A stretch of 64,000 bases of DNA, taken from an uncultured Smithella sp. (lineage in GTDB: Bacteria > Desulfobacterota > Syntrophia > Syntrophales > Smithellaceae). Below the pieces are notes generated by a model. The model worked only from the letters and a program-made list of their open reading frames with translations. It searched no databases and was not told the DNA's origin. The position numbers were made by a program, and so were the translations under genes. Below are positions 15,660 to 50,867 of the stretch, piece after piece. Position 1 is the stretch's first letter. Every line of letters begins with the position of its first letter. The DNA lies in contig CAYUDM010000009.1 in assembly GCA_964443625.1 (NCBI GenBank), positions 10,005 through 74,004 on the forward strand, given 5' to 3'.

Positions 15660-15691
15660 CCATAAAACAGACCAGGCGATTCGGAAAAATC

Positions 15692-17241: not shown

Positions 17242-17306
17242 TTCGTTCACGTCCGCATCTCTAACTCTCTCAAAACGTTATCCTGACAACGGAAAGCCCT
17301 GTTTCA

Positions 17307-34951: not shown

Positions 34952-35311
34952 TTATACTTGCGCCACTCTTCTGGAGATCTTTTTGAGGCGACTGATCTGA
35001 AGCCTCAAAGTGACGGCTTTCTTATCATCTCTTTCCTCAATGGCCTGCCATCTTTGAATTTTAAGCTCCCGAATTTTTGCTTTCACTTGGGGCTTGGTCA
35101 GTTTGATTTTAACTTTGTGTTTGGATTTGTGAACGGGCGCTTCATCTTTGATGCCCTTGGCTTCTTTGATGAAGGCTACAAGTTCCTCTTTTTTCATGTC
35201 ATGGACGGCTTTTTCATGCGGGAATTCGGCCGCCAACTCCCGCAATTCCTTCACGGTTAATTTTTCCAGGGGTTTTTCTTCGGCATGTTTTTTGTGGGTT
35301 TCTTCAGACAT
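34952..35311 (-). CDS. Lys-rich small protein with a Rho-N/SAP-like N-terminal helix pair
   Basis: LTVKELRELAAEF..KKEELVAFIKEAKG. AAAGGAGG SD. Confidence 0.4.
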   Translation of the reverse strand: MSEETHKKHAEEKPLEKLTVKELRELAAEFPHEKAVHDMKKEELVAFIKEAKGIKDEAPVHKSKHKVKIKLTKPQVKAKIRELKIQRWQAIEERDDKKAVTLRLQISRLKKISRRVAQV

Positions 35312-35486: not shown

Positions 35487-35515
35487 TTGACATATTATGG
35501 GCATATGCTTATATC
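35487..35515 (+). promoter_or_regulatory. Sigma-70-type promoter candidate for the DUF134/sigma-54-activator pair
   Basis: TTGACA, a 17-nt spacer, then TATATC, located 22 nt upstream of the start at 35537. Confidence 0.5.
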
Positions 35516-35536
35516 TCTTAAAAAGGAGAAGGAAAG

Positions 35537-35890
35537 ATGCCCCGACCAAAATGTCACCGCCATGTCTGCGGAATGCCGGATGCCAATTACTTCAAGCCCC
35601 GCGGCATTCCCGCCCTTGAGCTTGAAGAAGTCGCGCTGCATCTGGATGAATTTGAAGCCATCCGCCTGGCGGATTACGAAAAACTCTATCAGGAGGAGGC
35701 GGCGGCCCGGATGAACATTTCCCGCCAAACCTTCGGCCGCATTATAGAGGCGGCCCGAGGCAAAATAGCCGATGCGCTCATTTCCGGCAAGGCACTCAAA
35801 ATTGAGGGCGGGCCCGTCAAAATGAAACCCAGTACCGCCGGGAAGGGCGAAAGCGCCCCCCGACTTCAAAAAGTCAAGGAGGGAAGATGA
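35537..35890 (+). CDS. DUF134 (UPF0251) putative DNA-binding protein
   Basis: MPRPKCHR..P....FKPRGIP......V.L..DE.EA.RL.D.....QEEAA..M.ISRQTF.R is the family pattern as I remember it. Confidence 0.7.
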   Translation: MPRPKCHRHVCGMPDANYFKPRGIPALELEEVALHLDEFEAIRLADYEKLYQEEAAARMNISRQTFGRIIEAARGKIADALISGKALKIEGGPVKMKPSTAGKGESAPRLQKVKEGR

Positions 35891-37239
35891 AGACCGCTGC
35901 GTCCTCAACGCTCAATTCCAGCGATGGACAAAACATCATTCTGGATTCCATTGCCGACGGCGTCTTTACTGTGGATCGCGAGTGGCGCATAACGTCTTTT
36001 AACCGCGCCGCCGAAAGCATCACCGGCGTGACCCGCGCCGAGGCGATTGGTCAGTTGTGCAAAGACGTGCTGAAGGCGGACATCTGCGAAAAAAACTGCT
36101 GCCTGCGGGCGACGATGAAAAGCGGTGAGCCCATCATCAATAAAAAAGTCCATATCATTGACGCGGGCGGCCACCGGTTTCCCATAAGCATTTCCACCGC
36201 GCTTCTGCGTAATGCCAAAGGAAGGCTTCTGGGTGCCGTTGAGACCTTCCGTGACATTCGCGTGGAAGAGCACTTGCGCAAGGCAATTTCGTCGAAGTAT
36301 TCCTTTGAGGACATTATTTCGAAAAATCACCGCATGCAACAGTTGTTTGACATCCTGCCGGACATCGCTGAAGGCGCAAGTACGGTGTTGATTGAAGGGG
36401 AAAGCGGCACCGGCAAGGAACTCATCGCCCGCGCCATCCATTCGCTGAGCGCGCGAAAAAAGCAGCCCTTTGTCGCCGTCAACTGCGGGGCGCTGCCCGA
36501 TACGCTTCTGGAGTCGGAACTCTTCGGTTACAAGGCCGGCGCGTTTACCGACGCGAAAAAAGACAAGCCGGGCCGCTTCCGTCTGGCCGAAAACGGCACG
36601 CTGTTTCTCGATGAAATCGGGGAACTGACGCCTGCGATGCAGGTCAAGCTCCTGCGCGTTCTTCAGGAAAAAACCTATGAGCCGCTGGGCGCTACCCAAA
36701 GTATTGCGCATAATGTCCGCATTGTGGCGGCCACCAACAAAAATCTTGACGAACTGGTCCGCAAAAGACAGTTTCGCGAGGATTTATACTACCGCATCAA
36801 CGTCTTTAAAATTTCATTGCCGCCCTTGCGCGAACGCTTGGAAGACATCCCGCTTCTGGTGGAACATTTTATTGAACGCTTCAATCTGCTCACGAAAAAA
36901 AATATCGAAGGCGCAAGCACCGAAGCAATGGCTGTCCTGATGGCATACGCCTGGCCGGGCAATGTCCGGGAGTTGGCCAATCTCATCGAGCGCGCTTTTA
37001 TTTTATGCAAGGGGGGGCTTATCGAAAAACATCACCTGCCGGAGTCGCTGGTTCGCCCCGCCGCCTCCAAAAACACTTCCCCGCCGCAATCGCTCTCTGA
37101 CGTCGAGGCAACCTACCTGATGGATGCCCTCCGGGCCAACGGCTGGAACCGTCTGGCCACCGCCCGGAAACTGGGGATGCACAAAAGCACGCTGTACCGC
37201 CGCATCAAGACGCTGGGGCTCATCCCTCCGCGCGCCTGA
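35887..37239 (+). CDS. Sigma-54-dependent transcriptional activator (PAS-AAA+-Fis HTH)
   Basis: [28 protein letters not shown] and the C-terminal [14 protein letters not shown]. Its start overlaps the DUF134 gene stop by 4 nt. Confidence 0.9.
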
Positions 37240-37365
37240 ATTCAGAGTCGCAATAATACGACTAAGTTGCAGATGAAGTCGCATCATTGCGACGTCCAGC
37301 TCGACTTCCCGACGCTTTGCCTGCGCAATATACCGTGAATATTACATTTATTTTTTTGGCTGATC

Positions 37366-37381
37366 TGGCCCCTCTCTTGCA
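37366..37381 (+). promoter_or_regulatory. Sigma-54 (-24/-12) promoter candidate
   Basis: TGGCCCCTCTCTTGCA has the exact GG-N10-GC spacing of TGGCAC-N5-TTGCW. It lies 52 nt upstream of the 37434 start. Confidence 0.55.
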
Positions 37382-37433
37382 TTATAAGTGATCAGACTTA
37401 AACCACGCCAGCGCTCGATGAGCGCCAGAGGAA

Positions 37434-37877
37434 ATGATGAAACTTGCCGTGTCCATATTTAAAGAAAGCATCTCCACCGTATTCGATGCCGCCGATCAAC
37501 TTTTGATGATTGAAATGGCGCCCGACGGATCGCGGCAAAGGTCGCTTTTAAAAATATCAAGCTCCGAGCCCGCGTCAAGAGCCTTCGAACTCAAGGCGCT
37601 CGGGGTGGATGTTTTAATTTGCGGGGCAATCTCCCGGCACATGCAGGCCTCGATGGCCTCTCAGGGGATTGAAGTCCACGCCTTTGTCCGGGGAACGGTG
37701 GATGACGTGGTTGCCGCTTACTCCGACAATCGGCTGGGTCAGTCGATTTTTTCCCTGCCGGGCTGTCACGGTCGCGAACCGGGGAATTCGTTCTGCGCCG
37801 GGCCTGGATCCAAGGCGATGCGCGGACGGGGACGCGGTCTGCGTTGTAAGCAGGGCTCACAACGGGGACGGGCGTAG
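37434..37877 (+). CDS. NifX/NifB-C-terminal-like (dinitrogenase FeMo-cofactor-binding fold) protein with an Arg/Gly/Cys-rich tail
   Basis: The core is ..VFDAADQLLMIE......VDVLICGAISRHMQASMASQGIEV. The tail is LPGCHGREPGNSFCAGPGSKAMRGRGRGLRCKQGSQRGRA. Confidence 0.65.
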   Translation: MMKLAVSIFKESISTVFDAADQLLMIEMAPDGSRQRSLLKISSSEPASRAFELKALGVDVLICGAISRHMQASMASQGIEVHAFVRGTVDDVVAAYSDNRLGQSIFSLPGCHGREPGNSFCAGPGSKAMRGRGRGLRCKQGSQRGRA

Positions 37878-37916
37878 GCCGGCTCCCGTACACTATTATG
37901 AAAAGGAGACAAGATA

Positions 37917-38465
37917 TTGAACGCGTTTATTCCAAAACAACTGTTTTTTACCAAGGGGGTCGGCACGCATCGGGAGCAACTGCATTCCTTCGAGCTGGCG
38001 CTCAGAGACGCGGGTATCGAGAAGTGCAACCTGGTCCAGGTCTCGAGCATCATGCCGCCCGGATGCAAAATTATTTCCAAAGCCGAAGGGCTAAAAAAGC
38101 TCAAGGCCGGCGCGATTACGTTTTGCGTCATGAGCCGCTGCTGCTCCAATGAACCGCGTCGTCTCATCTCGGCGTCCGTCGGGTGCGCGATTCCCGTGGA
38201 TAAAAAAACGTATGGCTACATCAGCGAACATCACGATTTCGGCTACACGGAGCGGCAGACGGGTGACTATGCGGAAGATCTGGCCGCGGCCATGCTGGCC
38301 TCGACGCTGGGCATCGATTTCAACGTGGATGAAAGTTGGGACGAGAAGAAGGAACTTTTTAAAATCAGCGGGAAAATTGTTGGGACGCGCAACACCACGC
38401 AATCCGCAGTTCTCAAGACGAAGGACTATACGACGGTTCTGGCGGCGGCCGTTTTTGTTTTCTAA
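37917..38465 (+). CDS. pdaD: Pyruvoyl-dependent arginine decarboxylase
   Basis: IPKQLFFTKGVGTH...ELALRDAGIEKCNLVQVSSIMPP contains the SS self-cleavage region. TTG start after an AAGGAG SD. Confidence 0.8.
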   Translation: MNAFIPKQLFFTKGVGTHREQLHSFELALRDAGIEKCNLVQVSSIMPPGCKIISKAEGLKKLKAGAITFCVMSRCCSNEPRRLISASVGCAIPVDKKTYGYISEHHDFGYTERQTGDYAEDLAAAMLASTLGIDFNVDESWDEKKELFKISGKIVGTRNTTQSAVLKTKDYTTVLAAAVFVF

Positions 38466-38530
38466 AATTGACGTCGAACGGTTGCGTTCAACGTCATGAG
38501 GACAGGCAGAAACTAAAGGAGGTCTATATC

Positions 38531-38746
38531 ATGAATGGAAGAAATCGCACCGGTTGTGGGCAGGGTCAGGGCAGCGGCCAGGGGCGTGGTGGTCAGGGCC
38601 GGGGGCGCATGGGCGGCCCGACGGCGGGGGGCGCAGTGGGCGTGTGTCACTGTCCAAATTGCGGCCACACGCAGCCCCATGAACGGGGCGTGCCGTGCAC
38701 ACAGGTCAAGTGTCCGAAGTGCGGGACGAACTTGATTCGGCAGTGA
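38531..38746 (+). CDS. Gly/Arg-rich small protein with a C-terminal CxxC..CxxC zinc ribbon (DUF5320-like)
   Basis: MNGRNRTGCGQGQGSGQGRGGQGRGRMGGPTAGG..CHCPNCGH..CPKCG. AAAGGAGG SD before 38531. Confidence 0.5.
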   Translation: MNGRNRTGCGQGQGSGQGRGGQGRGRMGGPTAGGAVGVCHCPNCGHTQPHERGVPCTQVKCPKCGTNLIRQ

Positions 38747-38909
38747 GAAAGGCAAAACCAATCCGCATTTTTGCAACATAGACGGAAAGACTCTTTCCGT
38801 CAGGACGCCGGTGGCGCTTGATACACCGCTTCGCGCCACCGGCGCCAATTAGCTTTCGCAGAAATCCGCTCGCGGTCGTTTCTGCATCAACAGAAAGAGG
38901 GATGAAAAC

Positions 38910-39272
38910 ATGAAAATAGCCATTACCACCTCCGGCAGTGACTTGAATGCGCCGCTGGACAGCCGTTTCGGCCGCGCGCCGAAATTTTTAATCTACGATC
39001 TGGAGACGAAAGGTTTCGAGATCATCGACAACGCGCAAAGCTTAAACGCCACGCAAGGAGCGGGTATCCAATCCGCTCAAAATGTCGCGCGTAGCGGCGC
39101 GATGGCGCTCATCAGCGGTCATTGCGGTCCCAAGGCGTTTCGTGTGCTTCAGGCGGCGGGCATTAAAATTTATACGACAACGGCAACGACAGTGAACGAA
39201 GCGATTGGTGAATATCATGCGGGCAAGTTGACACAAGCCGCCTCGGCGGATGTGGAAGGTCACTGGGTATGA
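38910..39272 (+). CDS. NifX/NifB-like cofactor-binding-fold protein
   Basis: MKIAITTSG.....LDSRFGRAPKFLIYD....F..I.N..........GAGIQSAQ.....G....I.GHCGPKAF..L..AGIKIY. Confidence 0.8.
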   Translation: MKIAITTSGSDLNAPLDSRFGRAPKFLIYDLETKGFEIIDNAQSLNATQGAGIQSAQNVARSGAMALISGHCGPKAFRVLQAAGIKIYTTTATTVNEAIGEYHAGKLTQAASADVEGHWV

Positions 39273-39763
39273 ACCATTTGCAGATCGTCTGCAAACCGAT
39301 CGGCGTGATCCGCAGCGAGCACACGATCGCTGAAGAAACACCCATTCAGCCCGTTTACGCCAAAGGCTGCAAGGGCCACGTTGAAGTGTTTCCCGAATAC
39401 GCCGAAGGTCTGAAAGACCTTGACGGCTTTTCGCATCTTTATCTGCTTTACCATTTTCACGCCTGCGGGACGGTCAAGCTGACGGTCAAGCCTTTTTTGC
39501 AGGACATCGACCGCGGCATTTTTTCAACCCGCGCGCCTTTTCGTCCCAATCCCATCGGTTTGTCCGTGGTGGAACTTCTGGGAGTGGAGGGCAATATTTT
39601 GCACATTGAAGGTGTGGATATTCTCGACGGCACGCCGCTTCTGGACATTAAACCCTACACGGAAAAGTTTGATTTGCGCGCCGTCACCAAAAGCGGCTGG
39701 CAGGATGATGTGGATGAATCAACCGCCCACCGGCGGGGAAAGAGAGGGTATAGCCGAGCATGA
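39269..39763 (+). CDS. TsaA/TrmO-like SAM-dependent methyltransferase fold (UPF0066)
   Basis: ..PIGVIRSE..........FSHLYLLYHFH......STRAPFRPNPIGLSVV....VEGN.L.I.GVDILDGTPLLDIKPY. Confidence 0.8.
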   Translation: MNHLQIVCKPIGVIRSEHTIAEETPIQPVYAKGCKGHVEVFPEYAEGLKDLDGFSHLYLLYHFHACGTVKLTVKPFLQDIDRGIFSTRAPFRPNPIGLSVVELLGVEGNILHIEGVDILDGTPLLDIKPYTEKFDLRAVTKSGWQDDVDESTAHRRGKRGYSRA

Positions 39764-40647
39764 AATCTTCCATTGACTGTATTCCCTGTTTCGTCCGCCA
39801 GGCGGCCGACGCGGTGAGCTTCGCGGCGCCGAAGGATGAAGATCGTAAACGTTTGATGCGCATTGTTCTGGAGTGGGTAAGCCATATCGATTTTGATCTG
39901 TCTCCGCCTGCCGCCGTTCAGATGATCCATCGACAATTGCGCGCCCTGACGCCTGCTGAGGATCCGTATCGTGCGGCCAAAGACCGTCAAAACGACCTTG
40001 CGGCGCGCCTGATGCCATCGGTCCGCAAAAGAATTCTCGCGTCCTTTGACCCGCTGGACATGGCCGTGCGGTACGCGATTACCGGAAATATTCTTGATCT
40101 GGGCGCAAAAAACAATCTGGGAATGGGGGATATTTACGCGGAATTTCAAAGCGCCTCGATCCAACCGGTTTTTGGCGACATGGCGGCGCTCAAGAAGGCC
40201 CTCTCGGGTGCCAAAAATATTTTGTATCTGGCGGACAACGCCGGAGAAATATTTTTCGACCGATTGCTGATCGAACAGTTGGGCGGCAAAAGAGTAACGC
40301 TGGCCGTGCGCGGCGCGCCGGTCATTAACGATGCGACCCGCGAAGACGCCCTTTCGGCGGGCCTCGACGAGATAACGGACATTATTGACAATGGCTCCGA
40401 TGCGCCGGGAACCATTTTGTCGGATTGCGGCGATGAATTTAGACGGTGCTTTGACGAAGCGGATTTAATTATCGCCAAGGGCCAGGGCAATTTCGAGTCT
40501 CTCTCGGACGAGCCGCGCGACATCTTCTACCTGTTTCGGGTAAAGTGTCCACTCATCAGCCGCCATGCAGGTTTCCCGGTTGGCAGCTATGTTGCCGCCA
40601 ACCGATTTGGCGCGCGCAATCCCGAATTCGAAGGAATCAACTCATGA
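39760..40647 (+). CDS. DUF89 (ARMT1-like, damage-control phosphatase family) protein
   Basis: N-terminal C.PC, then LADNAGEIFFD and IAKGQGNFESL motifs. Confidence 0.75.
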   Translation: MKSSIDCIPCFVRQAADAVSFAAPKDEDRKRLMRIVLEWVSHIDFDLSPPAAVQMIHRQLRALTPAEDPYRAAKDRQNDLAARLMPSVRKRILASFDPLDMAVRYAITGNILDLGAKNNLGMGDIYAEFQSASIQPVFGDMAALKKALSGAKNILYLADNAGEIFFDRLLIEQLGGKRVTLAVRGAPVINDATREDALSAGLDEITDIIDNGSDAPGTILSDCGDEFRRCFDEADLIIAKGQGNFESLSDEPRDIFYLFRVKCPLISRHAGFPVGSYVAANRFGARNPEFEGINS

Positions 40648-41507
40648 AAATTTCTGTCGCCTCCGGCAAGGGAGGAACCGGCAAAACCACCGTATCCGTG
40701 AATTTGGCCCGGACAATGGCCTCTTGCGTTGCGCTTTTGGACTGCGATGTGGAAGAGCCCAACGCGCACCTGTTTGTCCAGGGGGAGGTCATTGATGAGG
40801 AGGTGGTCACGCTGCCCATTCCCCGCGTGGATGAATCGTTGTGCGACGGATGTGGCCTGTGCAGTAAAATCTGCGCGTTTAACGCGATCGTCACTTTCGG
40901 CACGGCGCCGCTGATTTTTCCCGAGTTGTGCCATGGCTGCGGCGGCTGTGCACGTGTCTGCCCGCCCCAAGCCATTACCGAAGAAGGCCGACGCATCGGT
41001 GTAGTGGAGACGCGACACACGGCGGATATTACGCTCATCACCGGGCGGCTCGATATCGGGGTGGCCATGTCGCCGCCTCTGATCCGTGCTGTGAAGGCGC
41101 GTCTGACACCGGGGATGCCGGCGATTCTGGATGCGCCTCCCGGGACATCGTGCCCGGTGATTGCAGCAGTGCGGGACACGGACATCGTGCTTCTGGTGAC
41201 GGAACCCACACCGTTTGGCCTCAATGATCTCTCTCTGGCGGTGGATATGGTGCGCGAGCTTGGCTTGCCCTTCGGCGTCATCATCAACCGCATGGGCTCG
41301 GGTGACAACCGCGTGCAGGACTATTGCGCCAAGGAGGGCATTGACGTCCTGATGGAAATTCCCGATGACCGGCGCATCGCCGAGGCCTATTCCCGCGGCG
41401 AGATCATGGTGGATGCCCTGCCCGAATATCGCATCCTTTTTGAAAATCTTTTAACAACCATCCGGAATCGTATCGCTGAGGGAGAAAAACGTTATGCCAA
41501 CCTTTAA
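40644..41507 (+). CDS. MinD/CooC-type P-loop ATPase with inserted 2x[4Fe-4S] ferredoxin domain
   Basis: MKISVASGKGGTGKTT, then CDGCGLCSKIC and CHGCGGCARVCP. ATGA overlap with the upstream gene; the ORF track opens at 40545. Confidence 0.8.
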   Translation: MKISVASGKGGTGKTTVSVNLARTMASCVALLDCDVEEPNAHLFVQGEVIDEEVVTLPIPRVDESLCDGCGLCSKICAFNAIVTFGTAPLIFPELCHGCGGCARVCPPQAITEEGRRIGVVETRHTADITLITGRLDIGVAMSPPLIRAVKARLTPGMPAILDAPPGTSCPVIAAVRDTDIVLLVTEPTPFGLNDLSLAVDMVRELGLPFGVIINRMGSGDNRVQDYCAKEGIDVLMEIPDDRRIAEAYSRGEIMVDALPEYRILFENLLTTIRNRIAEGEKRYANL

Positions 41508-42462
41508 GTATCTTTACGGCCCTGTGCCATCGCGCCGCTTAGGCCGGTCGCTGGGGCTTGATCTGGTTCCTTATAAAACATGCACCTACGACTGCATTTA
41601 TTGCCAGCTGGGGAAAACGACGAATAAAACGATTGAAAGACGCGAGTATGTTCCTCCCGCGGAGGTTCTGGAAGAGCTTCGGGAAAAACTCGCCTCCGGG
41701 CTGAACTGTGATTATATCAGTCTGGCCGGTTCCGGAGAGCCGACGCTGCATGCGGGCCTCGAGGAGTTGATTGCCAAAATCAAAGAAATGACTAAGATTC
41801 CCGTTTCGGTGATCACCAATGGGTCGCTTCTGTATCTGCCTGAGGTCCGCCAGTCGCTTCTGGGCGCGGACCTCGTTGTGCCGTCTCTGGATGCCGGTGA
41901 CGCAGCGCTCTTCGAATATGTGAACCGGCCTTCTCCGGCCATTGATTTTCAGCAGATGGCCGAGGGTCTGGTTTCGTTTGCCAGAGAATATTCCGGACGT
42001 CTGTGGCTTGAAGTCCTCTTGGTTTCCGGTGTAACGGGGCTTCCTTCGGAGGCCAGAAAAATCGCGGCCTGGGCCGATAAAATCCATCCGGAAAAAATCC
42101 AGCTCAACACCGTGAGCCGTCCCGCCTATGAAGATTTCGCCTGTGCTGTGGATCCGAAACAGATGAAAACGCTGGCCGGCCTATTTTCTCCGGTGGCCGA
42201 GATTCTCGAAATCACGCATCCCGCTTATGCTGATGAAGCGAATGTGTCGAATGTGACGGACGCCGACATTATGAATCTTCTGGCGAGGCGGCCCTGTACG
42301 CTCGACGGGATCTCTGCGGGGCTTGGCCTGCATCCGCATGAGGCGGCCAAGCGCATCGAACATCTCAGAAACAACAACGCCATAGAAACAACGCGAAACG
42401 GGCGGAAAGTATTTTATAAATCAGTAAACACCCCTTCTGAGGAGGCGCCCATCCGCCCATGA
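41494..42462 (+). CDS. Radical SAM protein
   Basis: YGPVPSRRLGRSLGLDLVPYKTCTYDCIYCQLG contains a CX3CX2C motif. It overlaps the upstream gene by 14 nt. Confidence 0.8.
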   Translation: MPTFKYLYGPVPSRRLGRSLGLDLVPYKTCTYDCIYCQLGKTTNKTIERREYVPPAEVLEELREKLASGLNCDYISLAGSGEPTLHAGLEELIAKIKEMTKIPVSVITNGSLLYLPEVRQSLLGADLVVPSLDAGDAALFEYVNRPSPAIDFQQMAEGLVSFAREYSGRLWLEVLLVSGVTGLPSEARKIAAWADKIHPEKIQLNTVSRPAYEDFACAVDPKQMKTLAGLFSPVAEILEITHPAYADEANVSNVTDADIMNLLARRPCTLDGISAGLGLHPHEAAKRIEHLRNNNAIETTRNGRKVFYKSVNTPSEEAPIRP

Positions 42463-42908
42463 GTGACGTTTTGGAGACAAAAAAATATATTGAGGCCTGC
42501 CGGGAAATATTCTGGCAGAAAGTATTCGCGGTTGAAGCGGAATATCTCTGCGCAAAGCTTCGGGGCTGCTTAGACGTTTTGAGCGTCGGCTGCGGCCCGG
42601 CAATTATCGAAGGAGAGCTGGCCGCGAAAGGCTATCGCGTCACCGGGCTGGATATTTCCCAGGAGGCTTTGAAGTGCGCGCCGGATAGCATTCGGACAAT
42701 GGCTGGCCGGGCCGAAGACCTGTCGTTTCCCGAGTCCTCCTTCGATGCCGCCATTTTTGTGGCGTCTTTGCAATTCATTGAAGATTACCGGGCGGCGCTT
42801 AACCGTGCGGCGGCCGCATTAAAACCCGATGGCCGGATCATCGCGATGCTGCTCAACCCTGCGTCGGAATTCTACAAAGACCTGCGCCGCAAACCGGATG
42901 AATCATGA
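42459..42908 (+). CDS. Class I SAM-dependent methyltransferase (short)
   Basis: VLSVGCGPA (motif I), ..GLDIS, and a 4-nt overlap with the upstream gene. Confidence 0.7.
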   Translation: MSDVLETKKYIEACREIFWQKVFAVEAEYLCAKLRGCLDVLSVGCGPAIIEGELAAKGYRVTGLDISQEALKCAPDSIRTMAGRAEDLSFPESSFDAAIFVASLQFIEDYRAALNRAAAALKPDGRIIAMLLNPASEFYKDLRRKPDES

Positions 42909-42937
42909 TCTTGCGAAATTAAAATGACCGGGAGGGG

Positions 42938-43561
42938 ATGCGTTTTATGCCCATCGATGAAAACGAATTAGCTCAAAATCACAAGCGCTACCGCAAGCGG
43001 ATCGCGTTGTATCGGAAATACGGATATGATGTTGACGAAGAGCGGAATTTTGTGATTGAAAAAGCAATGCCTCTTTCCGGAAATATTCTGGAAGCCGGAA
43101 CCGGAAAGGGTTATTTTTCGCTGGCCCTGGCCCGGCGGGGGTTTTCCTTCACCACCGTTGATCATTCGCCTTCGGAGCAATGGTATGCGGGGTTGAATCT
43201 GGGCTTTTACGGTCTGGCGAGCCTTGTTCGTTTCGATGTGGCGGACCTGGAGCATCTTCCTTACGCCGATGCGTCTTATGATGTGATTTTTGCGGTCCAT
43301 CTGGTTCATCACCTCGCGTTAATCGAGCCCGCTTGCAGCGAAATTCTGCGGGTCTTGTCGCCTTCGGGCAAAATCGTATTAAGTGACTTCAATGAAAAGG
43401 GTCGGGCGGTGGTGGATCAAATTCACGCCCTGGATGGAAAAAAGCATGAGGTGGGACTGGTGACCCTGAAGGCCGTCAAGGATTATTTGACCGATCGGGG
43501 CTTGTGGGTTGAAAAACACGAGGCAACGCACCAGGATGTGCTGATTGCGTCCCGACCATAA
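42938..43561 (+). CDS. Class I SAM-dependent methyltransferase
   Basis: ILEAGTGKGYFSLALARRG, ..TVDHS. The start may instead be the second ATG at 42947. Confidence 0.7.
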   Translation: MRFMPIDENELAQNHKRYRKRIALYRKYGYDVDEERNFVIEKAMPLSGNILEAGTGKGYFSLALARRGFSFTTVDHSPSEQWYAGLNLGFYGLASLVRFDVADLEHLPYADASYDVIFAVHLVHHLALIEPACSEILRVLSPSGKIVLSDFNEKGRAVVDQIHALDGKKHEVGLVTLKAVKDYLTDRGLWVEKHEATHQDVLIASRP

Positions 43562-43627
43562 CGGCGGATGCCATGATGCTCAAAAAAGCAAAGGGTTGGG
43601 ATCCCTTGGAGGTTCATTTTCGAGGCT

Positions 43628-44497
43628 ATGAAAGAATTAGTGATTATCAGCGGTAAAGGCGGAACAGGAAAAACCAGCGTGACGGCGTCATTTGCGGTGC
43701 TCGCCTCGCGCGCCGTGATCTGTGATTGCGACGTCGACGCCGCAGATTTGCATCTGGTGTTGACGCCCCAAATCCGGGAGCGTCATGAATTTCGAAGCGG
43801 GCATGAAGCGCTCATCCGGCCGGAAGATTGCTCGGGCTGCGGCCTGTGCGAAGAGATTTGCCGCTTTGACGCGATTGCGTCTTGTGACGGCGTTTATCGC
43901 ATCGATCCGGTTGCCTGTGAAGGCTGCGGCGTGTGTGCGCATTTTTGCCCTGAAAAAGCAATTGACTTTCCCGAGCGTCTCTGCGGAAACTGGTTTGTTT
44001 CGGATACGCGCGTGGGGCCGATGGTGCATGCGCGCCTCGGCGTGGCGGCTGAAAATTCCGGCAAACTCGTCTCCACCGTGCGCACGGAAGCCAAGCATCT
44101 GGCTGAAGAAGAAAACTTCAATTGCGTTTTGGTGGATGGGCCTCCCGGCATTGGCTGTCCGGTCATCGCCTCGCTCACCGGCGCCTCGCAGGTTCTGGTG
44201 GTGACGGAGCCTACCGTATCGGGCGAGCATGATCTGGAGCGCGTGCTGGGGCTCGCAAGACATTTTCAGATTCCCGCGTTTGTGTGCGTCAATAAATGGG
44301 ACATCAATCCGGAGATGACCTGCCGCATTGAGAAGTTCGCCCGTGACGCAGGCGCCCGCATTGCCGGACGCATCCGCTATGACCGGGCTGTCACCCGGGC
44401 GCAGATTGATCAAAAAGCCGTCGTGGAAACTAAGGCCGCTTGCGCTCACGATATTAAAGCAATATGGACTTATTTAAATCAAGCAGGAGGATGTTAA
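43628..44497 (+). CDS. MinD/CooC-type P-loop ATPase with inserted 2x[4Fe-4S] ferredoxin domain (second copy)
   Basis: ISGKGGTGKTS, CSGCGLCEEIC, CEGCGVCAHFCP. Confidence 0.8.
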   Translation: MKELVIISGKGGTGKTSVTASFAVLASRAVICDCDVDAADLHLVLTPQIRERHEFRSGHEALIRPEDCSGCGLCEEICRFDAIASCDGVYRIDPVACEGCGVCAHFCPEKAIDFPERLCGNWFVSDTRVGPMVHARLGVAAENSGKLVSTVRTEAKHLAEEENFNCVLVDGPPGIGCPVIASLTGASQVLVVTEPTVSGEHDLERVLGLARHFQIPAFVCVNKWDINPEMTCRIEKFARDAGARIAGRIRYDRAVTRAQIDQKAVVETKAACAHDIKAIWTYLNQAGGC

Positions 44498-44503
44498 TAA
44501 AAA

Positions 44504-45412
44504 ATGGAGGACAAAGAAGTGGAAAACAAAAAAACGTGCAGTTCTTGCACAGATTCAAGCTGCTCCGCCAAAGCAAAACAGCAGGGCGAAAGCGATACGG
44601 ACTTTGCCGATCGACAACGGCTTCATGCAAGGCTGTGTCGTATTGGGCATAAAATTGCCGTGCTGTCCGGCAAGGGCGGCGTCGGCAAAAGCACGGTGGC
44701 GGTGAACCTGGCCACGGCGCTGGCGTTAAACGGCCTGCGCGTGGGGCTTCTGGATATCGATATTCACGGGCCCAGCGTTCCCACGATGTTGGGGCTTGAA
44801 GGCCAGTCGCTCAAAGGCAATCCCGGTGAAATTTTTCCCGTGGAATTCGGCGGGCTGAAAGTCATGTCCATCGGCTTTTTACTGCAAAATCCCGACGATG
44901 CGGTCATCTGGCGCGGGCCCATGAAAATGGGCGTCATCAAACAGTTTCTGACGGATGTCAACTGGGGCGATCTGGATTACCTGATTATCGATTTGCCGCC
45001 CGGCACGGGCGACGAGCCACTGTCGCTTTGCCAGTTGATCCAGCCGCTGACCGGCTCGGTGATCGTAACGACGCCGCAAAAAGTGGCGGCGGTGGATGTG
45101 CGCAAGTCCATCAGTTTCTGCCGACGGCTGGAGGTGCCGGTTTTAGGTGTGGTGGAAAACATGAGCGGCTTCGTCTGTCCCAAGTGCGGCGAGCTGACGC
45201 AAATTCTGCCCGAAGGCGGCGGACGGAAAATCGCGTCCGACATGGACGTGCCTTTCCTGGGCGCCATTCCTCTGGACCCGGGCATTGCGCAATCCGGCGA
45301 TTCCGGCAAAGTGTTTATTTATCATTCGTCCAAAACGCCGACGGGAATCATTCTGCAGGAGATTATCGATCAGATTACCGATCCGGATAAAACAAAAAAA
45401 ATTAACGCATAA
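44504..45412 (+). CDS. Mrp/NBP35/ApbC-family Fe-S cluster carrier ATPase
   Basis: Cys-rich N-terminus, VLSGKGGVGKST, DLPPGTGDE and CPKCG. Confidence 0.85.
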   Translation: MEDKEVENKKTCSSCTDSSCSAKAKQQGESDTDFADRQRLHARLCRIGHKIAVLSGKGGVGKSTVAVNLATALALNGLRVGLLDIDIHGPSVPTMLGLEGQSLKGNPGEIFPVEFGGLKVMSIGFLLQNPDDAVIWRGPMKMGVIKQFLTDVNWGDLDYLIIDLPPGTGDEPLSLCQLIQPLTGSVIVTTPQKVAAVDVRKSISFCRRLEVPVLGVVENMSGFVCPKCGELTQILPEGGGRKIASDMDVPFLGAIPLDPGIAQSGDSGKVFIYHSSKTPTGIILQEIIDQITDPDKTKKINA

Positions 45413-45425
45413 GGAGAATGGCTTT

Positions 45426-45764
45426 ATGAAAATTGCCGTACCGTTAGCCGAAGGCAAATTGACGCTGCATTTCGGGCATTGCGCAAGCTTTGCCCTGGTC
45501 GAAGTGGATGATCAGACGAAAAAGATTCTTGGACGCGAGGACATTCCCGCGCCGCCTCATCAGCCGGGACTTTTACCGCCGTGGCTGGCCGAACGCGGCG
45601 CGAAGATGATTATCGCAGGCGGCATGGGTCAGCGCGCTCAGCAGCTTTTCGCCGAGCAAGGCATCCAGGTGGTGGTCGGCGCACCGGCTGAGGCGCCGGA
45701 AAAACTGATTACAGACTTTTTTGCAGGCGCGCTGCAAACCGGCGCGAACGCCTGCGATCACTAA
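45426..45764 (+). CDS. NifX/NifB-like cofactor-binding-fold protein (third copy)
   Basis: MKIAVPLAEGKLTLHFGHCASFALVEVD... AAGGAG SD. The ORF track opens at 45285, inside the mrp gene. Confidence 0.75.
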   Translation: MKIAVPLAEGKLTLHFGHCASFALVEVDDQTKKILGREDIPAPPHQPGLLPPWLAERGAKMIIAGGMGQRAQQLFAEQGIQVVVGAPAEAPEKLITDFFAGALQTGANACDH

Positions 45765-45797: not shown

Positions 45798-47339
45798 ATG
45801 CCGTTTGATGAACTGCTGAAGGATTTGCAGATCCGGAAAGAAAAGGCCCTTGCCCAGGGAGGGGCCGATAAAACTCAAAAGCAGCATGACAAAGGAAGGT
45901 TCACCGCGCGTGAACGGATTGGACGACTGCTCGATGACGGTTCTTTTCTGGAGTTGGGCGCGCTTTGCGCCTCCGACATTTCCGGTATGGCCGAGAAAAC
46001 CCCTGCCGACGGACTGGTTTTAGGTTACGGCACCATCGGCGGGCGGCGCGTGGGCGTCTTTGCCAACGACTTCACCGTACTGGCCGGCTCCAGCGCCAGC
46101 ATCAATAACAAGAAAATGGGCCTCTTCAAAAACCAGCTCTACGATTACGGCTTTCCAATGATCTGGCTGGGCGAAGCCGGCGGCCAGCGCATTCCTGATC
46201 TTCAGGATGCGGGCCGAATGCTGTTTCACGGCGTGGGCTCCGACGCCGCGCGGCCCGGCTACAGCCATTTCCGACAGGTGCCTTACGTGATGGCGGCGAT
46301 GGGCGATTGCCACGGCGTTCCCGACTGGCAGGCGTGCCTCGCGGATTTTACGCTCATCGTGAAGGGCGCCTCCATTGCCGTATCCGGTCCGCGCGCGCTG
46401 GAAAAAGCCATTGGCCAGCAACACAGCGCCGAAGAAATGGGCGGCTGGCAGGTGCACGCGCAGGTGACCGGTATGGCCGACCAGGTGGCGGAAAATGAAG
46501 AAGACTGCTTTCGCCTGATTAAAACCTATCTGGACTATATGCCTTCCAACCAGGGTGAACTGCCGCCCAGGCGGACAGTGCTGGAAGGCTCGAATGATCG
46601 GGCAAAAAAGATTCTGGACATCCTGCCGGAAAAGCGTACGCGCGCCTACGACATGCATAAAATTATTACTTGTCTTGTTGACGGCGGGCAGTATCTGGAA
46701 TTCAAACCGTTTTTTGGGAAAATGCTGATTACCGCTTTGGCCCGCGTGGGCGGCGAAACGGTCGGTTTTATCGCGAGCAACCCCATCGTCAACGCCGGCG
46801 CCACCGACACGGACGCGCTGGAGAAATCCACCAGTTTTATGTGCCATTGCGACTCATTCAACATTCCTCTGATCTTTCTGGTCGATACGCCGGGACACCT
46901 GACCGGTCTGGAGGCGGAGCAAAAACGCGTGGGCGCAAAGGTGGTCAACAATCTCCAGGCGCTGTTTCAGGTGACGGTTCCCAAAATCACGATCCTCATT
47001 CGCAAAGGCTACGGCCAGGCGATGGTCAACATGTGCGCCGCCGGGGCGGGCGCGGATTTTCTGGTGGCCTGGCCCACGGCTGAAATCAGCTTCATGGATC
47101 CGCATGTCGGCGCGGATATCGTCTTCGGAAACCTTCCGGAAGCCGAGCGCGAAAAGCTGGTGGAAAAAATGATGGCGGATTCTTCGCCTTATCCGGCGGC
47201 GCGGGTTTACGGTATTTCCGATGTCATCCATCCCTGCGAAACGCGCGCCTATCTGATCAACGTTCTGGGCATTATCCGGGATTCGAAAACAAAAGGCATG
47301 AGCCGGCATCTTCTGGCGGGCTGGCCGACCAAATTCTAA
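45798..47339 (+). CDS. Acyl-CoA carboxylase carboxyltransferase subunit (PccB/MmdA family)
   Basis: 513 aa with the two crotonase-like halves typical of the carboxyl transferase domain (..GTIGGRRVGVFANDFTVLAGS.., ..ARVGGETVGFIASNP..). Confidence 0.85.
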   Translation: MPFDELLKDLQIRKEKALAQGGADKTQKQHDKGRFTARERIGRLLDDGSFLELGALCASDISGMAEKTPADGLVLGYGTIGGRRVGVFANDFTVLAGSSASINNKKMGLFKNQLYDYGFPMIWLGEAGGQRIPDLQDAGRMLFHGVGSDAARPGYSHFRQVPYVMAAMGDCHGVPDWQACLADFTLIVKGASIAVSGPRALEKAIGQQHSAEEMGGWQVHAQVTGMADQVAENEEDCFRLIKTYLDYMPSNQGELPPRRTVLEGSNDRAKKILDILPEKRTRAYDMHKIITCLVDGGQYLEFKPFFGKMLITALARVGGETVGFIASNPIVNAGATDTDALEKSTSFMCHCDSFNIPLIFLVDTPGHLTGLEAEQKRVGAKVVNNLQALFQVTVPKITILIRKGYGQAMVNMCAAGAGADFLVAWPTAEISFMDPHVGADIVFGNLPEAEREKLVEKMMADSSPYPAARVYGISDVIHPCETRAYLINVLGIIRDSKTKGMSRHLLAGWPTKF

Positions 47340-47355
47340 CCGAATAGGGGGGCAT

Positions 47356-48312
47356 ATGACGGCGCAAACCGGGTTAAAAGCGGTGGATAAGATTGAAATC
47401 TGGACGCTGCAGGACAACTACATCGAGATGACCGCGATGGACAACAGCGCGGTGGTGACGCGGGCGATGGCGATCAAGGACGGTGAAATCAAAGCGTCCA
47501 TTCTGGCGGAACACGGTTTTGCGGCGCTCGTCAAAACGACAGCGGAGGGCAAAACGCACACGCTGCTTTTCGACTTCGGTTTTTCCGAAGATGGGGCGGC
47601 CCGGAACGCGGAAAGCCTCGGCCTGAACATGCGCGAGGTCGAGGCGGCGGCGCTGTCGCACGGCCACAGTGATCACACCGGCGCCATGAAGGCCTTCGGT
47701 CAGGCGATCGGCAAAAAGAACCTGCCGCTTGCGCTCCATCCGACGGCGTTCAAGTCCGCCCGTTATCTGAAACTGGGAGAGGCACTCAAATTTTATTTTC
47801 CGAAACTCACGCGTGAAATGGTGAAAGACGCGGGCTTTGAACCGGTGGAAATCGAAAAATCCTGTCCCCTGCTTGACGGCGCGGTATTATTCCTGGGCGG
47901 CATTCCCCGCCGGACGGATTTTGAAAAAGGATTTCCCATTGCTTACCGTCTCGAAGACGGCAAGGAAATCTGGGACGCCATTGAAGACGACACATCGGTG
48001 GTGATGCATCTGAAAAACAAGGGCCTGGTGATTTTATCCGGCTGCGCCCACGCGGGCATTGTCAACACGGTGCAATATGCGATCGAGACAACTGGCGTTA
48101 CGCAAGTGCATGCCATCATGGGTGGTTTTCACCTGTCCGGGCCATTTTTTGAACCGATCATCGACCGCACGGCCGAGGCGCTGCAAAACTTCAAACCGGC
48201 CTACGTCATCCCGACACACTGCACCGGCCGTAAAGCGATCATGGAAATAGAAAAAAAGATGCCGAATCAGTTCATTTTGAATATGTCTGGAACGAAGCTC
48301 ACTTTTCAGTAA
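47356..48312 (+). CDS. MBL-fold metallo-hydrolase
   Basis: Contains the SHGHSDHTG motif. Confidence 0.7.
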   Translation: MTAQTGLKAVDKIEIWTLQDNYIEMTAMDNSAVVTRAMAIKDGEIKASILAEHGFAALVKTTAEGKTHTLLFDFGFSEDGAARNAESLGLNMREVEAAALSHGHSDHTGAMKAFGQAIGKKNLPLALHPTAFKSARYLKLGEALKFYFPKLTREMVKDAGFEPVEIEKSCPLLDGAVLFLGGIPRRTDFEKGFPIAYRLEDGKEIWDAIEDDTSVVMHLKNKGLVILSGCAHAGIVNTVQYAIETTGVTQVHAIMGGFHLSGPFFEPIIDRTAEALQNFKPAYVIPTHCTGRKAIMEIEKKMPNQFILNMSGTKLTFQ

Positions 48313-48471
48313 GGCGGTAGGAGTGAGGAGTGAGGTGAAAGGTTGAAGGCGAAAGGAAAAAGGCGATAAGTGCAAGACACAGCGGAGAGGAGTCCGGCGC
48401 ATGCTGGACAGAAGCTGCAGTTTCTCTTTACACCTGACACCTAACGCTTCACCGGATAAAAAGGAGTTTTC

Positions 48472-48945
48472 ATGACACAAAAAGCGTTTCAGGATTATTA
48501 CCCGGAAGATTTGAGCCACTGTTACGGCTGCGGCAGGTTAAACGATAAAGGACTGCAAATTAAAAGTTTCTGGGACGGCGAAGAATCCGTCTGCGTTTAT
48601 ACACCCAGGGATTACCATACGGCCATTCCCGGATTTGTGTATGGCGGGCTCATTGCTTCGCTGATCGACTGCCACTCGACCGGCACGGCCGCAGCGGCCA
48701 AGTACCGGGCGGAAGGCCGGGAAATGGATTCTGATCCGCCGATCCGGTTTGTGACTGCTTCTTTGCACGTGGATTATCTGCTGCCAACGCCGACGGGCGT
48801 TCCTCTTGAAGTCCGGGGAAAGGTCAAACTGATCAAGGGACGCCGCGTGGTCATTGAGGCGCGCCTCCTGGCCCAAGGAAAAGTCTGCGCACAAGGCGAG
48901 GTGGTGGCCGTCCAAATGCCGGAGCACATGCGTCCGGAAAAGTAA
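48472..48945 (+). CDS. Hotdog-fold (PaaI-type) thioesterase
   Basis: Contains the GFVYGGLIASLIDCH block. Confidence 0.6.
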   Translation: MTQKAFQDYYPEDLSHCYGCGRLNDKGLQIKSFWDGEESVCVYTPRDYHTAIPGFVYGGLIASLIDCHSTGTAAAAKYRAEGREMDSDPPIRFVTASLHVDYLLPTPTGVPLEVRGKVKLIKGRRVVIEARLLAQGKVCAQGEVVAVQMPEHMRPEK

Positions 48946-48972
48946 CTATATTTAACCGGGAACAGATCGGTC

Positions 48973-49797
48973 ATGATGAATAAAGCCATTAAAACCTTCT
49001 ACTTCAGCGCCACGGGAGCAACAAAAAAGATTGCGGATGCCATTGCCGGAGAGCTGGCAAAGCGCTTTGGTGTTCAGTCGGTCGGGAATGTCGATTTTAC
49101 ACTGCCGGAGGGCAGAAAAGAGCCTGCCTCTTTTTCCAGACAGGACATCGTCGTAGCCGGCGTTCCGGTTTACGCGGGCCGGGTTCCCAATGTCTTATTG
49201 AAATATTTAAACACTATCCACGGCAACGGCGCGCTGGCTGTTGCCGTGGTGGCTTACGGAAACCGTCATTATGACGACTCGCTCGTCGAATGGCGGGACA
49301 TCCTGAAATCCAGAGGCTTTCAAGTTGTTGCCGCCGGCGCCTTCATCGGCGAACATTCTTTTTCCAAAATCCTCGGGGGAGACAGACCCGATGCGCAGGA
49401 TATGGCGTGTGTCAAGGCATTTGCCAGGCGGATATTTGAAAAGCTTGCCGCTTCTCACGGTAGGGCAGAGACGCTATCCGTGCCAGGAAATCAACCCTAT
49501 CAGCCTTATTATCGTCCCAAAGACAAAGACGGCAACCCCGCCTCCATCCTCAAGGTCGTCCCGAAAACCAGCATAGACTGCATCTCCTGCGGCCTGTGCG
49601 CCAGTCTTTGCCCCATGGGCTCCATTGATGCGGATGACCCGTCCAGAATCACGGGCATCTGCATCAAATGCTGCGCCTGCATCAAAAACTGCCCGGTTGC
49701 GGCAAAGTATTTTGATGACGCCAATTTCCTGTGGCACAAGAAGGAACTGGAGGTTGCTTTCTCTTCCCCGCGCCGGGAACCGGAATTCTTTTTATAA
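48973..49797 (+). CDS. Flavodoxin-like / 2x[4Fe-4S] ferredoxin fusion (EFR1-type)
   Basis: N-terminal TFYFSATGATKKIA, and C-terminal CISCGLCASLCP plus CIKCCACIKNCP. Confidence 0.6.
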   Translation: MMNKAIKTFYFSATGATKKIADAIAGELAKRFGVQSVGNVDFTLPEGRKEPASFSRQDIVVAGVPVYAGRVPNVLLKYLNTIHGNGALAVAVVAYGNRHYDDSLVEWRDILKSRGFQVVAAGAFIGEHSFSKILGGDRPDAQDMACVKAFARRIFEKLAASHGRAETLSVPGNQPYQPYYRPKDKDGNPASILKVVPKTSIDCISCGLCASLCPMGSIDADDPSRITGICIKCCACIKNCPVAAKYFDDANFLWHKKELEVAFSSPRREPEFFL

Positions 49798-49878
49798 ATC
49801 TGCATTTCATTGATCGAAATCAATGCGCAAAGCTCATGCCTCTGTTAGAGTTTCAACGAAAAAAGGAGCAGAAAACCG

Positions 49879-50829: not shown

Positions 50830-50867
50830 CGCAGTTTAAACCTATTAACCCACTTCAAGGAGCATGT

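Follow-up and report, generated by a model that had tools for sequence, protein, structure and literature searches.

Fifteen genes of an uncultured Smithella sp. as a probable expanded orp operon, and the linkage of its radical SAM gene to ORP genes across phyla

What is a gene cluster for in which NifX-fold proteins, MinD-type ATPases with ferredoxin motifs and an Mrp-type iron-sulfur (Fe-S) carrier are interleaved with S-adenosylmethionine (SAM) enzymes, and is it a pathway of its own or an enlarged form of a system that already has a name? The locus that raises this question lies between positions 35537 and 45764 of a 64,000-nucleotide (nt) stretch of DNA from an uncultured Smithella sp. 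(assembly GCA_964443625.1, contig CAYUDM010000009.1), called the window below; gene calls, motif counts and repeat counts refer to the whole of it. An initial annotation of the locus had proposed a sigma-54-controlled unit that builds or inserts a modified metallocluster or small cofactor, around a NifX, MinD-ferredoxin, Mrp and DUF134 core that recurs in anaerobes without an assigned function. That recurrence was borne out. The core is not nameless: it is the orange protein (ORP) system of Desulfovibrio, comprising OrpR, Orp3/4, Orp8 and MrpORP, for which the regulator, the low-redox-potential signal and the Fe-S carrier step have been characterized (PMC8359166, PMC6345978, PMC3897727). We concluded that the locus is probably an expanded orp operon of Smithella-type Syntrophales, which is redox-gated, handles Fe-S or metal-sulfide species and has dependent SAM enzymes co-expressed with it. 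The ORP core was already known, and what is new here is the set of interleaved enzymes, foremost the linkage of a radical SAM gene to ORP genes.

An ORP core in a co-directional array

Proteins were annotated by Pfam and NCBIfam profile searches, which upheld every domain assignment made earlier. All 15 genes are present on the + strand, and the six gene overlaps reported for them were confirmed to the nucleotide: five measure 4 nt and one measures 14 nt. The limits of the cluster had to be moved: position 35487, taken as its start, is the TTG of a spurious open reading frame (ORF) that coincides with a TTGACA box, the true DUF134 start being 35537, and the array extends beyond 45764.

The identity of the core parts was established by these searches. 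The middle NifX-fold protein (38910-39272) is an ORP homologue of the Orp8 type; its best match among solved structures is 2WFB, the ORP of D. gigas (E = 8e-23; residues 2-112, 111/120 residues), and the second best is MTH1175. MinD-type ATPase 1 (40644-41507; CbiA/ParA and Fer4 domains) has the P-loop GKGGTGKT and the motifs CDGCGLCSKIC and CHGCGGCARVC, and MinD-type ATPase 2 (43628-44497; Pfam domains) likewise carries two CxxCxxCxxxC [4Fe-4S] motifs; both have the architecture of Orp3/Orp4, and they are 31% identical to one another. The last two genes encode the halves of a split MrpORP, a protein known from Desulfovibrio as a two-domain Fe-S carrier (PMC6345978). The Mrp/NUBPL P-loop half (44504-45412) matches positions 2-256 of the MrpORP model NF041136 with 383 bits and the Di-Nase half (45426-45764), which has the NifX fold, matches positions 265-364 with 127 bits; neither half alone attains the 450-bit cut-off of the model, the two being split, not fused. 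The Mrp half shows GKGGVGKS, CPKC and a Cys-rich N-terminal CSSCTDSSC, and the Di-Nase half shows HFGHC, PPHQPGLLP (PPHxPGxxP) and a C-terminal CDH, as named for MrpORP. The deviant Walker A motif GKGGVGKS and the bridging CxxC are shared with the Mrp/Nbp35/ApbC carriers at large (bacterial ApbC and Cfd1-Nbp35 of the eukaryotic cytosolic iron-sulfur assembly machinery, CIA), and the Cys-rich N-terminal stretch is shared with Nbp35 and MrpORP. The carrier in the window differs from these in that it appears to be dedicated to clients encoded in its own operon and is paired with a NifX-fold partner.

The closest known system is thus the ORP system of D. vulgaris Hildenborough, D. alaskensis G20 and D. 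gigas (Orp3, Orp4, Orp5, Orp8, Orp9/MrpORP and OrpR), which has in common with the window the ORP homologue, two MinD-type ATPases with two [4Fe-4S] clusters each and the Mrp plus Di-Nase carrier, and also a strictly anaerobic host from a lineage of syntrophs. In Desulfovibrio the ORP itself (DVU2108 in D. vulgaris) binds a Mo-Cu-S cluster, the Orp proteins form a complex, and Orp5 (DVU2105) is a small [2Fe-2S] protein. The canonical ORP operons that we retrieved with the D. gigas ORP sequence have the order [DUF134]-ORP-MinDFd-MinDFd-NifX-Zn_ribbon_8 and contain no radical SAM gene, and the window can therefore be read as a series of insertions into an ORP array. It differs from the Desulfovibrio system in being co-directional, in the split of MrpORP into two genes and in its regulatory palindrome; it adds a tailed NifX protein resembling IssA and a Gly/Arg-rich zinc-ribbon protein, and it interleaves PdaD, a TrmO-like protein, a DUF89 protein, the radical SAM enzyme and two methyltransferases with the core. 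All the sequence-level ORP features that we looked for were found in the window except the divergent two-operon layout. Canonical ORP operons (L090-L092) are co-directional as well, and the divergent layout is a feature of D. vulgaris and not a general one.

The tailed protein, here called NifXa (37434-37877; PF02579, Nitro_FeMo-Co), is the first structural gene product. It combines an acidic domain with an isoelectric point (pI) of 5.6 and a conserved PGC motif with a tail of 47 residues and pI 11.6 that contains 11 Gly, 7 Arg, 3 Cys and only 2 aromatic residues, and its subfamily is kept beside an OrpR-type activator across phyla. A disordered Gly/Arg tail of high pI behind a NifX-fold (IPR003731) domain is the published description of IssA from Pyrococcus furiosus, whose cationic tail binds thioferrate and whose authors noted uncharacterized mesophilic relatives, "IssX" (PMC5524996). 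IssA has also been modeled on MTH1175, the second structural match of the ORP homologue in the window. In the relatives described below the next small gene encodes a free-standing DUF5320 protein of tail-like composition, with MPRGDGTGP, a stretch rich in Gly, Arg and aromatic residues, and a coiled coil. The tail in the window is shorter than that of IssA (47 vs 70 residues), poor in aromatic residues and furnished with three Cys, and NifXa is embedded in an operon of ATPases, a carrier and enzymes. Downstream of it lies the gene of a 71-residue Gly/Arg-rich protein with a C-terminal zinc ribbon (38531-38746), which has no Pfam match above threshold. Seven loci of other lineages have its module (Gly/Arg plus CxCPxCG...CPxCG) as a fused C-terminal extension of NifXa. 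We rejected its assignment to DUF5320, as it is without the aromatic-rich region and the coiled coil; the 95%-identical relative L086 has both a gene of the 71-residue type and a 120-residue DUF5320. The likeness to IssA in composition supports, without proving it, the idea that these proteins hold anionic metal-sulfide species.

Nitrogenase cofactor maturation (NifU, NifB, NifX/NafY, NifH and NifEN) shares with the window a radical SAM enzyme, NifX-fold carriers and P-loop Fe-S ATPases, and shares with relatives of the window a NifU_N scaffold. The window differs in having no nifHDK or nifEN genes, and its ATPases are of the MinD and Mrp types with inserted ferredoxin domains, not NifH. The earlier statement that this is not a nitrogenase locus agrees with our finding of no nitrogenase subunit among the ten largest ORFs outside the cluster (at least 389 residues), which are housekeeping or mobile genes.

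The OrpR-type activator, its promoter and the predicted transcript

The array begins with a DUF134 helix-turn-helix (HTH) gene (35537-35890; PF02001, 92 bits), which overlaps by 4 nt the gene of a sigma-54 enhancer-binding protein of the OrpR type (35887-37239; PAS, AAA+ and HTH_8 domains in Pfam). A DUF134 gene also lies upstream of canonical ORP operons, e.g., L090. The PAS domain of the activator contains C58-x8-C67-x3-C71 with an Asp (D60) at +2, and this cysteine spacing is identical to that of D. vulgaris OrpR, in which the triad C52/C61/C65 with D/E54 holds a redox-sensing [4Fe-4S] cluster (PMC8359166). The activator further has the unusual loop sequence GAFTDA, as listed for DVU2106 (PMC4641369). 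The PAS-AAA+-HTH architecture, the Cys triad and the GAFTDA loop are thus all held in common with the Desulfovibrio regulator.

A -24/-12 box had been claimed in front of the first structural gene, and it is real. The sequence TGGCCCCTCTCTTGCA (37366-37381, + strand) has one mismatch to TGGCAC-N5-TTGCW and is one of two sites in 64 kb with such a score; of 20 related loci, 15 have a box of this kind 52-75 nt before the orthologue of the first structural gene. When the region upstream of the first structural gene was aligned for 18 related loci, a common pattern was observed: a pair, or in some loci a triplet, of tandem palindromes GTCGCA-N4-TGCGAC, followed by an A/T-rich spacer and then TGGCAY-N5-TTGCW. 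In the alignment the palindromes occupy the same place in about 15 related loci. In the window they make up two putative upstream activator sites on the + strand, GTCGCAATAATACGAC at 37247-37262 and the perfect palindrome GTCGCATCATTGCGAC at 37278-37293, 31 bp from the first, and an A/T-rich tract at 37338-37358 separates them from the promoter. No further OrpR-type palindrome with up to one mismatch was found in the 64-kb window. A sigma-54 promoter, tandem palindromic upstream sites and an A/T-rich spacer are also what the Desulfovibrio promoters have, and the promoter design is the same as that of Desulfovibrio OrpR promoters despite the other palindrome sequence.

The regulator pair itself may be driven by TTGACA-17 nt-TATATC (35487-35515, + strand), a candidate sigma-70 promoter read directly off the letters; a consensus promoter scan did not report this box. 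In D. vulgaris, orpR is transcribed by sigma-70 (PMC3897727). For the genes that follow, no second sigma-54 promoter was found before the ORP gene either in the window or in 25 relatives, and intrinsic terminators scored no more often than expected from shuffled sequence, with none in the intergenic gaps. A single redox-gated transcript covering the cluster would be the simplest reading, because no second sigma-54 box is present and terminator-like sites are no commoner than in shuffles. One sigma-54-controlled unit with its own regulators, as first proposed, is therefore retained, its -24/-12 box being conserved in relatives.

The largest gap inside the cluster deserves separate mention. The 163 nt between the gene of the Gly/Arg zinc-ribbon protein and the ORP gene (38747-38909) contain a conserved two-hairpin RNA element (38781-38844, + strand) with a 12-bp GC-rich stem and a 15-nt loop that ends in an invariant CCGCTT at its 3' end. 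The element folds at -43.2 kcal/mol (z = -7.8), and of 18 pairs in the RNAalifold structure 13 show compensatory changes; in helix 2, which is 97% paired, both sides have changed in 8 of the 12 pairs. A covariance model detected it nowhere but at this position in Syntrophales-like loci, with one or two copies per locus and tandem copies in L004 and L019. No match was obtained in an Rfam scan of 33000-54000 with E up to 0.1, and the element is not followed by a T-run. A repetitive extragenic palindromic (REP) type repeat was rejected in view of the single copy in 64 kb and the locus-specific position. Possible roles of the predicted hairpins are RNA processing or stabilization, attenuation, and protein binding.

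Linkage of the radical SAM gene and the other added genes

The radical SAM enzyme (41494-42462; PF04055, with a C-terminal winged-helix domain) is encoded between the two MinD-ferredoxin genes. Its homologues number in the thousands, the closest being found in metagenome-assembled genomes (MAGs) of Smithella, Smithellaceae and Syntrophaceae. For relatives, one genome per species was scanned, which yielded 80 loci from many phyla with a radical SAM protein of at least 50% identity, and each of them was searched with the window proteins; gene calling was crude. Linkage was counted where the radical SAM gene had at least 5 kb of sequence on either side, in 12 Syntrophales-like loci and 32 from other phyla. 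ORP-core genes were found near the radical SAM gene in 11/12 Syntrophales-like loci and 21/32 loci of other phyla. The MinD-ferredoxin genes (11/12 and 15/32), NifXa (11/12 and 20/32) and the activator (11/12 and 18/32) behave similarly, and nearly all linked genes are co-oriented with the radical SAM gene. The position of the latter between two MinD-ferredoxin genes also recurs in distant phyla. Among the activators that adjoin it, 30 of 34 have CX8CX3C in the PAS region. OrpR had been said to be confined to Deltaproteobacteria, whereas OrpR-type activators beside the radical SAM gene occur in MAGs labelled Acidobacteriota, Eisenbacteria, Raymondbacteria, Bacteroidetes, NC10, Victivallales and others. 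The smallest recurring module consists of an OrpR-type activator, the tailed NifX, DUF5320 and the radical SAM gene, often with Mrp (e.g., L046 and L051), and is carried by an isolate, Malonomonas rubra DSM 5091 (L051). At the other extreme, four loci with homologues of 60-75% identity have the same expanded operon, and the gene order of the 95%-identical relative L086 is that of the window. Same-strand adjacency to the ORP core, the triad in 30 of 34 activators and the recurring minimal module all indicate, at the level of gene context, that the radical SAM gene belongs with the ORP genes, as a genuine and widespread partner. We did not find this link described in the ORP literature searched.

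The enzyme itself belongs to no curated NCBIfam family at cut-off, and the same holds for the 201-residue membrane protein of relatives, the small Gly/Arg proteins and the CGGC protein. Across 79 sequences the only conserved Cys are those of CX3CX2C (C30/C34/C37) and C268, which lies in an RRPC motif of the winged-helix domain. As only one Cys is conserved beyond CX3CX2C, the protein should have no auxiliary clusters of the NifB type; it also differs from NifB in lacking a fused NifX domain, and a NifB-like role was rejected on these missing cysteines and on the absence of a NifB match. A role like that of TYW1 in wyosine synthesis was likewise rejected, the TIGR03972 score being 31 bits against a cut-off of 318, over residues 64-165 only, with no second cluster motif. 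A sequence search of the PDB with the radical SAM protein gave weak matches to BlsE and MoaA at most. An AlphaFold model with a predicted local distance difference test (pLDDT) score of 70 was submitted to Foldseek, which matched the cores of pyruvate formate-lyase activase, MoaA, TYW1, NifB, viperin and LipA at a template modeling (TM) score of ~0.5, a non-discriminating result in which the top match, pyruvate formate-lyase activase, stands at the same ~0.5 as many families. In one relative the radical SAM protein is fused to methyltransferase 1 (P0062; loci L004/L005).

Among the genes added to the core the radical SAM gene is the sole one linked to ORP genes across phyla. PdaD, a pyruvoyl-dependent arginine decarboxylase with a TTG start (37917-38465; PF01862, 207 bits), scores 208.3 bits against the cut-off of 207 of the equivalog NF009064 and contains QVSSIMPP, which we take to be the Ser-Ser self-cleavage site of the family. 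The TrmO/TsaA protein (39269-39763; PF01980, 143 bits), a SAM-binding protein of 164 residues, overlaps its neighbors by 4 nt at both ends and scores 132.6 bits against the TIGR00104 cut-off of 93.25. TrmO of the E. coli type has a C-terminal domain, whereas in the window protein PF01980 covers residues 23-135 and no other domain is present; in relatives its gene always stands directly after the ORP gene. Both PdaD and TrmO occur in 10/12 Syntrophales-like loci and in 3/32 of other phyla, and are mostly lineage-specific additions of the Syntrophales. The DUF89/ARMT1-like metal-dependent phosphatase family protein (39760-40647; PF01937, 222 bits) is a member by Pfam only, since it falls below the NCBIfam equivalog cut-offs (171.5 vs 440 and 146 vs 500 bits). 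It was found in 4/12 Syntrophales-like loci and 8/32 others. The two class I SAM methyltransferases (42459-42908, overlapping the radical SAM gene by 4 nt, and 42938-43561; both PF08241) were found in 4/12 and 6-7/32, and many close relatives, e.g., L001 and L003, do not have them. DUF89 and the methyltransferases are thus recurrent but optional. No characterized pathway was found that covers the added genes. Of the proposal that these genes constitute one metallocluster pathway, the non-random adjacency stands for the radical SAM gene; the pathway as a whole set does not, PdaD and TrmO being lineage-specific and DUF89 and the methyltransferases sporadic.

Some other genes recur in related loci. 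A gene of the phosphatidylserine-decarboxylase family lies between the radical SAM gene and the two methyltransferase genes in L012, L018, L022, L024, L027 and L053, though not in the window; with the methyltransferases it could form a phospholipid head-group module (phosphatidylserine to phosphatidylethanolamine to N-methyl-phosphatidylethanolamine or phosphatidylcholine). In most loci the gene immediately before the radical SAM gene encodes a Zn_ribbon_8 protein (FmdB-type, ~85 residues) with the conserved C-terminal tail CSLEETGKTCCGxxxRCGxxxCGD (L003-L084); such a gene also ends ORP operons without a radical SAM gene, and none is present in the window. Recurrent neighbors in other phyla (L052, L053, L070, L071, L073, L084 and others) encode a pyridoxal phosphate (PLP) enzyme of Cys/Met metabolism, Thi4-family, YkoF-like and PNPOx-like proteins, DUF169, a CGGC-domain protein, a DnaJ-domain protein and a His/Cys-rich membrane protein of 200 residues that belongs to no family.

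Downstream of the cluster the co-oriented and closely spaced array continues to about 52.6 kb with gaps of 16-159 nt. Pfam identified in this block (45798-52568, + strand) a carboxyltransferase, an MBL-fold protein, a 4HBT thioesterase, an EFR1-type flavodoxin-ferredoxin (FldFd), a SLAC1/TehA channel and a CoA-disulfide-reductase-rhodanese protein (CoADR). The order MBL-4HBT-FldFd-SLAC1-CoADR (47356-52568 in the window) is kept after the last NifX gene in relatives, and MBL and CoADR-rhodanese genes are found in 29/76 and 23/76 loci around the radical SAM gene, other phyla included. This recurrence hints at a wider sulfur/redox island. The carboxyltransferase gene (45798-47339, + strand; acyl-CoA carboxylase type), between the last NifX and MBL genes, is absent at that position in all relatives examined, so we regard it as a genome-specific insertion.

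Further along, an AhpC/peroxiredoxin gene (52876 or 52989 to 53600, + strand) has an in-frame TGA (53128-53130) at the position of the peroxidatic Cys (..GDFTFV*ATEISS..) and probably encodes a selenocysteine peroxiredoxin; in L001 and L002 gene calling broke its orthologue into AhpC fragments. On the other side, just upstream of the cluster, a divergent lysine-rich protein of 119 residues is encoded at 34952-35311 (- strand) with no Pfam match. A Mutator-family transposase gene (15728-16945, - strand) lies within a segment of lower GC content, 12000-18000 (44-47% vs ~55%), which may be an inserted island, and a B12-binding radical SAM protein (4575-6224, + strand) is unrelated to the radical SAM enzyme of the cluster.

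Weighing the readings

In the expanded orp operon that we favor, DUF134 and the OrpR-type activator would be made from their own promoter. The [4Fe-4S] cluster in the PAS domain of OrpR would sense low redox potential, and the activator would then bind the palindromes at 37247-37293 and activate the sigma-54 promoter at 37366-37381, giving a transcript that would span at least 37434-45764. The core products would act as a machine of the ORP type on inorganic Fe-S or metal-sulfide species. Three NifX-fold proteins would serve as holders (the IssA-like tailed protein, the ORP homologue, and MrpORP with its Di-Nase half), next to the Gly/Arg-rich partner; the two MinD-type ATPases would carry two [4Fe-4S] clusters each, and the Mrp carrier would load them. 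Into this core would have been inserted the TrmO-like and DUF89 genes after the ORP gene, the radical SAM gene and two methyltransferase genes between the ATPase genes, and PdaD near the front. The radical SAM enzyme would most likely take its cluster, and possibly low-potential electrons, from ORP proteins and act together with methyltransferase 1. Our own results bear on the identity of the parts, on the conservation of the promoter and on linkage. The redox signal and the Fe-S transfer are taken over from the work on Desulfovibrio, and that the tailed proteins handle metal sulfide and the radical SAM enzyme depends on ORP proteins is our inference.

Several points weigh against this reading. 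For the physiological role of ORP itself the published suggestion is cell division. The array forms one co-directional series and not two divergent operons, its activator sites differ in sequence from the Desulfovibrio OrpR box GGGCGYRTTTTGCGCCC, and it is without three genes that are common in relatives (Zn_ribbon_8, NifU_N and the 201-residue membrane protein). The proposed single transcript is read only from gene spacing and from the absence of other promoters and terminators, and the hairpins at 38781-38844 might split or attenuate it. The 80 loci are the closest radical SAM homologues, so that the linkage counts are descriptive, no formal null having been computed, and taxon labels of MAGs may be imprecise or wrong. 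Searches by sequence and by fold return generic radical SAM cores with no pointer to a substrate.

The dedicated pathway of the initial annotation, in which the radical SAM enzyme, methyltransferases, TrmO-like protein, DUF89 and PdaD would join NifX, MinD and Mrp proteins in building or inserting a modified metallocluster or cofactor, as a Nif-like line without nitrogenase, seems to us unlikely. Its part list does parallel NifU/NifB/NifX/NifH, with NifU_N in relatives, the genes are interleaved and translationally coupled, the radical SAM-ORP linkage extends across phyla and includes a fusion to a methyltransferase, and DUF89 appears in 8/32 distant loci. Yet the radical SAM protein has one CX3CX2C and one other conserved Cys, with no NifB-type auxiliary clusters, PdaD and TrmO are each found in 3/32 loci outside the Syntrophales, the methyltransferases are missing in many close relatives, and canonical ORP operons do without all of the added genes. 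The added genes could instead be unrelated passengers that came to lie in an anaerobic operon with strong expression and share regulation only, namely a tRNA m6t6A methyltransferase, a polyamine arginine decarboxylase, a damage-control phosphatase and lipid or small-molecule methyltransferases, and we give this little credence as an account of the whole locus. TrmO and PdaD score above NCBI equivalog cut-offs for housekeeping functions, gene content is patchy among close relatives, the phosphatidylserine-decarboxylase-like gene beside the methyltransferases of several relatives hints at a separate lipid module, and a carboxyltransferase is inserted in the window alone; against a collection of passengers speak the constant place of the radical SAM gene between MinD-ferredoxin genes in distant phyla, the TrmO-like protein without the C-terminal domain that always follows ORP, and the 4-nt overlaps that tie inserts to core genes. 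Such a mosaic fits PdaD and perhaps TrmO, and does not fit the radical SAM gene. A bolder proposal takes the radical SAM enzyme as the catalytic heart of many ORP systems: MinD-ferredoxin would give ATP-driven low-potential electrons, and the NifX-fold and Gly/Arg proteins would present a metal sulfide or remove the product, in a redox-gated, NifB-independent maturation or modification of a metal-sulfide cofactor among anaerobes of a dozen phyla. We hold this to be distinctly improbable.

Three narrower explanations were also considered. The radical SAM enzyme and a methyltransferase might modify a small Gly/Arg- or Cys-rich neighbor such as the NifXa tail, DUF5320 or Zn_ribbon_8 with its CCG tail. 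The composition of the minimal module (OrpR-type activator, NifXa, DUF5320 and radical SAM), the Zn_ribbon_8 gene that most loci have just before the radical SAM gene and the top fold match to pyruvate formate-lyase activase, a protein-modifying radical SAM enzyme, are in line with peptide modification; but the fold matches do not discriminate, with TM ~0.5 for many families, Zn_ribbon_8 is also present in ORP operons without a radical SAM gene and absent from the window, and no precursor-like pattern of leader and core was seen. We hold this reading to be very unlikely. We attach scarcely more than nominal weight to a role in cell division or positioning, as proposed in Desulfovibrio, in which the MinD-like ATPases and partners would position a septum or polar structure with the metal clusters as regulators. 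There, inactivation of OrpR leads to morphological defects, MrpORP is polar, and Orp3/4 of D. vulgaris have been reported with MinD-like C-terminal amphipathic helices; on the other hand the locus contains no division gene and gives the ATPases Fe-S scaffolds, carriers and SAM enzymes as partners, the neighborhood consists mostly of redox and sulfur genes, and the original authors themselves call the link to division a hypothesis. A wyosine-like tRNA modification by the radical SAM enzyme, the TrmO homologue and the methyltransferases has a probability close to nil. It could appeal to the JGI label "wyosine synthetase (radical SAM superfamily)" of homologues and to the TrmO family match, but the label appears to be a broad superfamily-level name, the partners are metal-cluster proteins, and the TYW1 score and missing second cluster motif have been given above.

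The expanded orp operon accordingly describes no new type of system. ORP is a conserved, anaerobe-specific module associated with syntrophy, of which the regulator and one carrier step are known. To it the present locus and its relatives add a conserved enzymatic partner, a radical SAM family under OrpR-type activators well beyond the Deltaproteobacteria, while the resemblance of the tailed NifX and DUF5320 proteins to IssA suggests a link to iron-sulfur storage. Because the cultured Malonomonas rubra DSM 5091 carries the minimal module, the module can be approached there with mutants, interaction studies and activity assays. Should the radical SAM enzyme prove to depend on ORP proteins or to act on their cargo, a widespread orphan system would gain a biochemical role, and the locus offers a concrete, testable handle on this old orphan.

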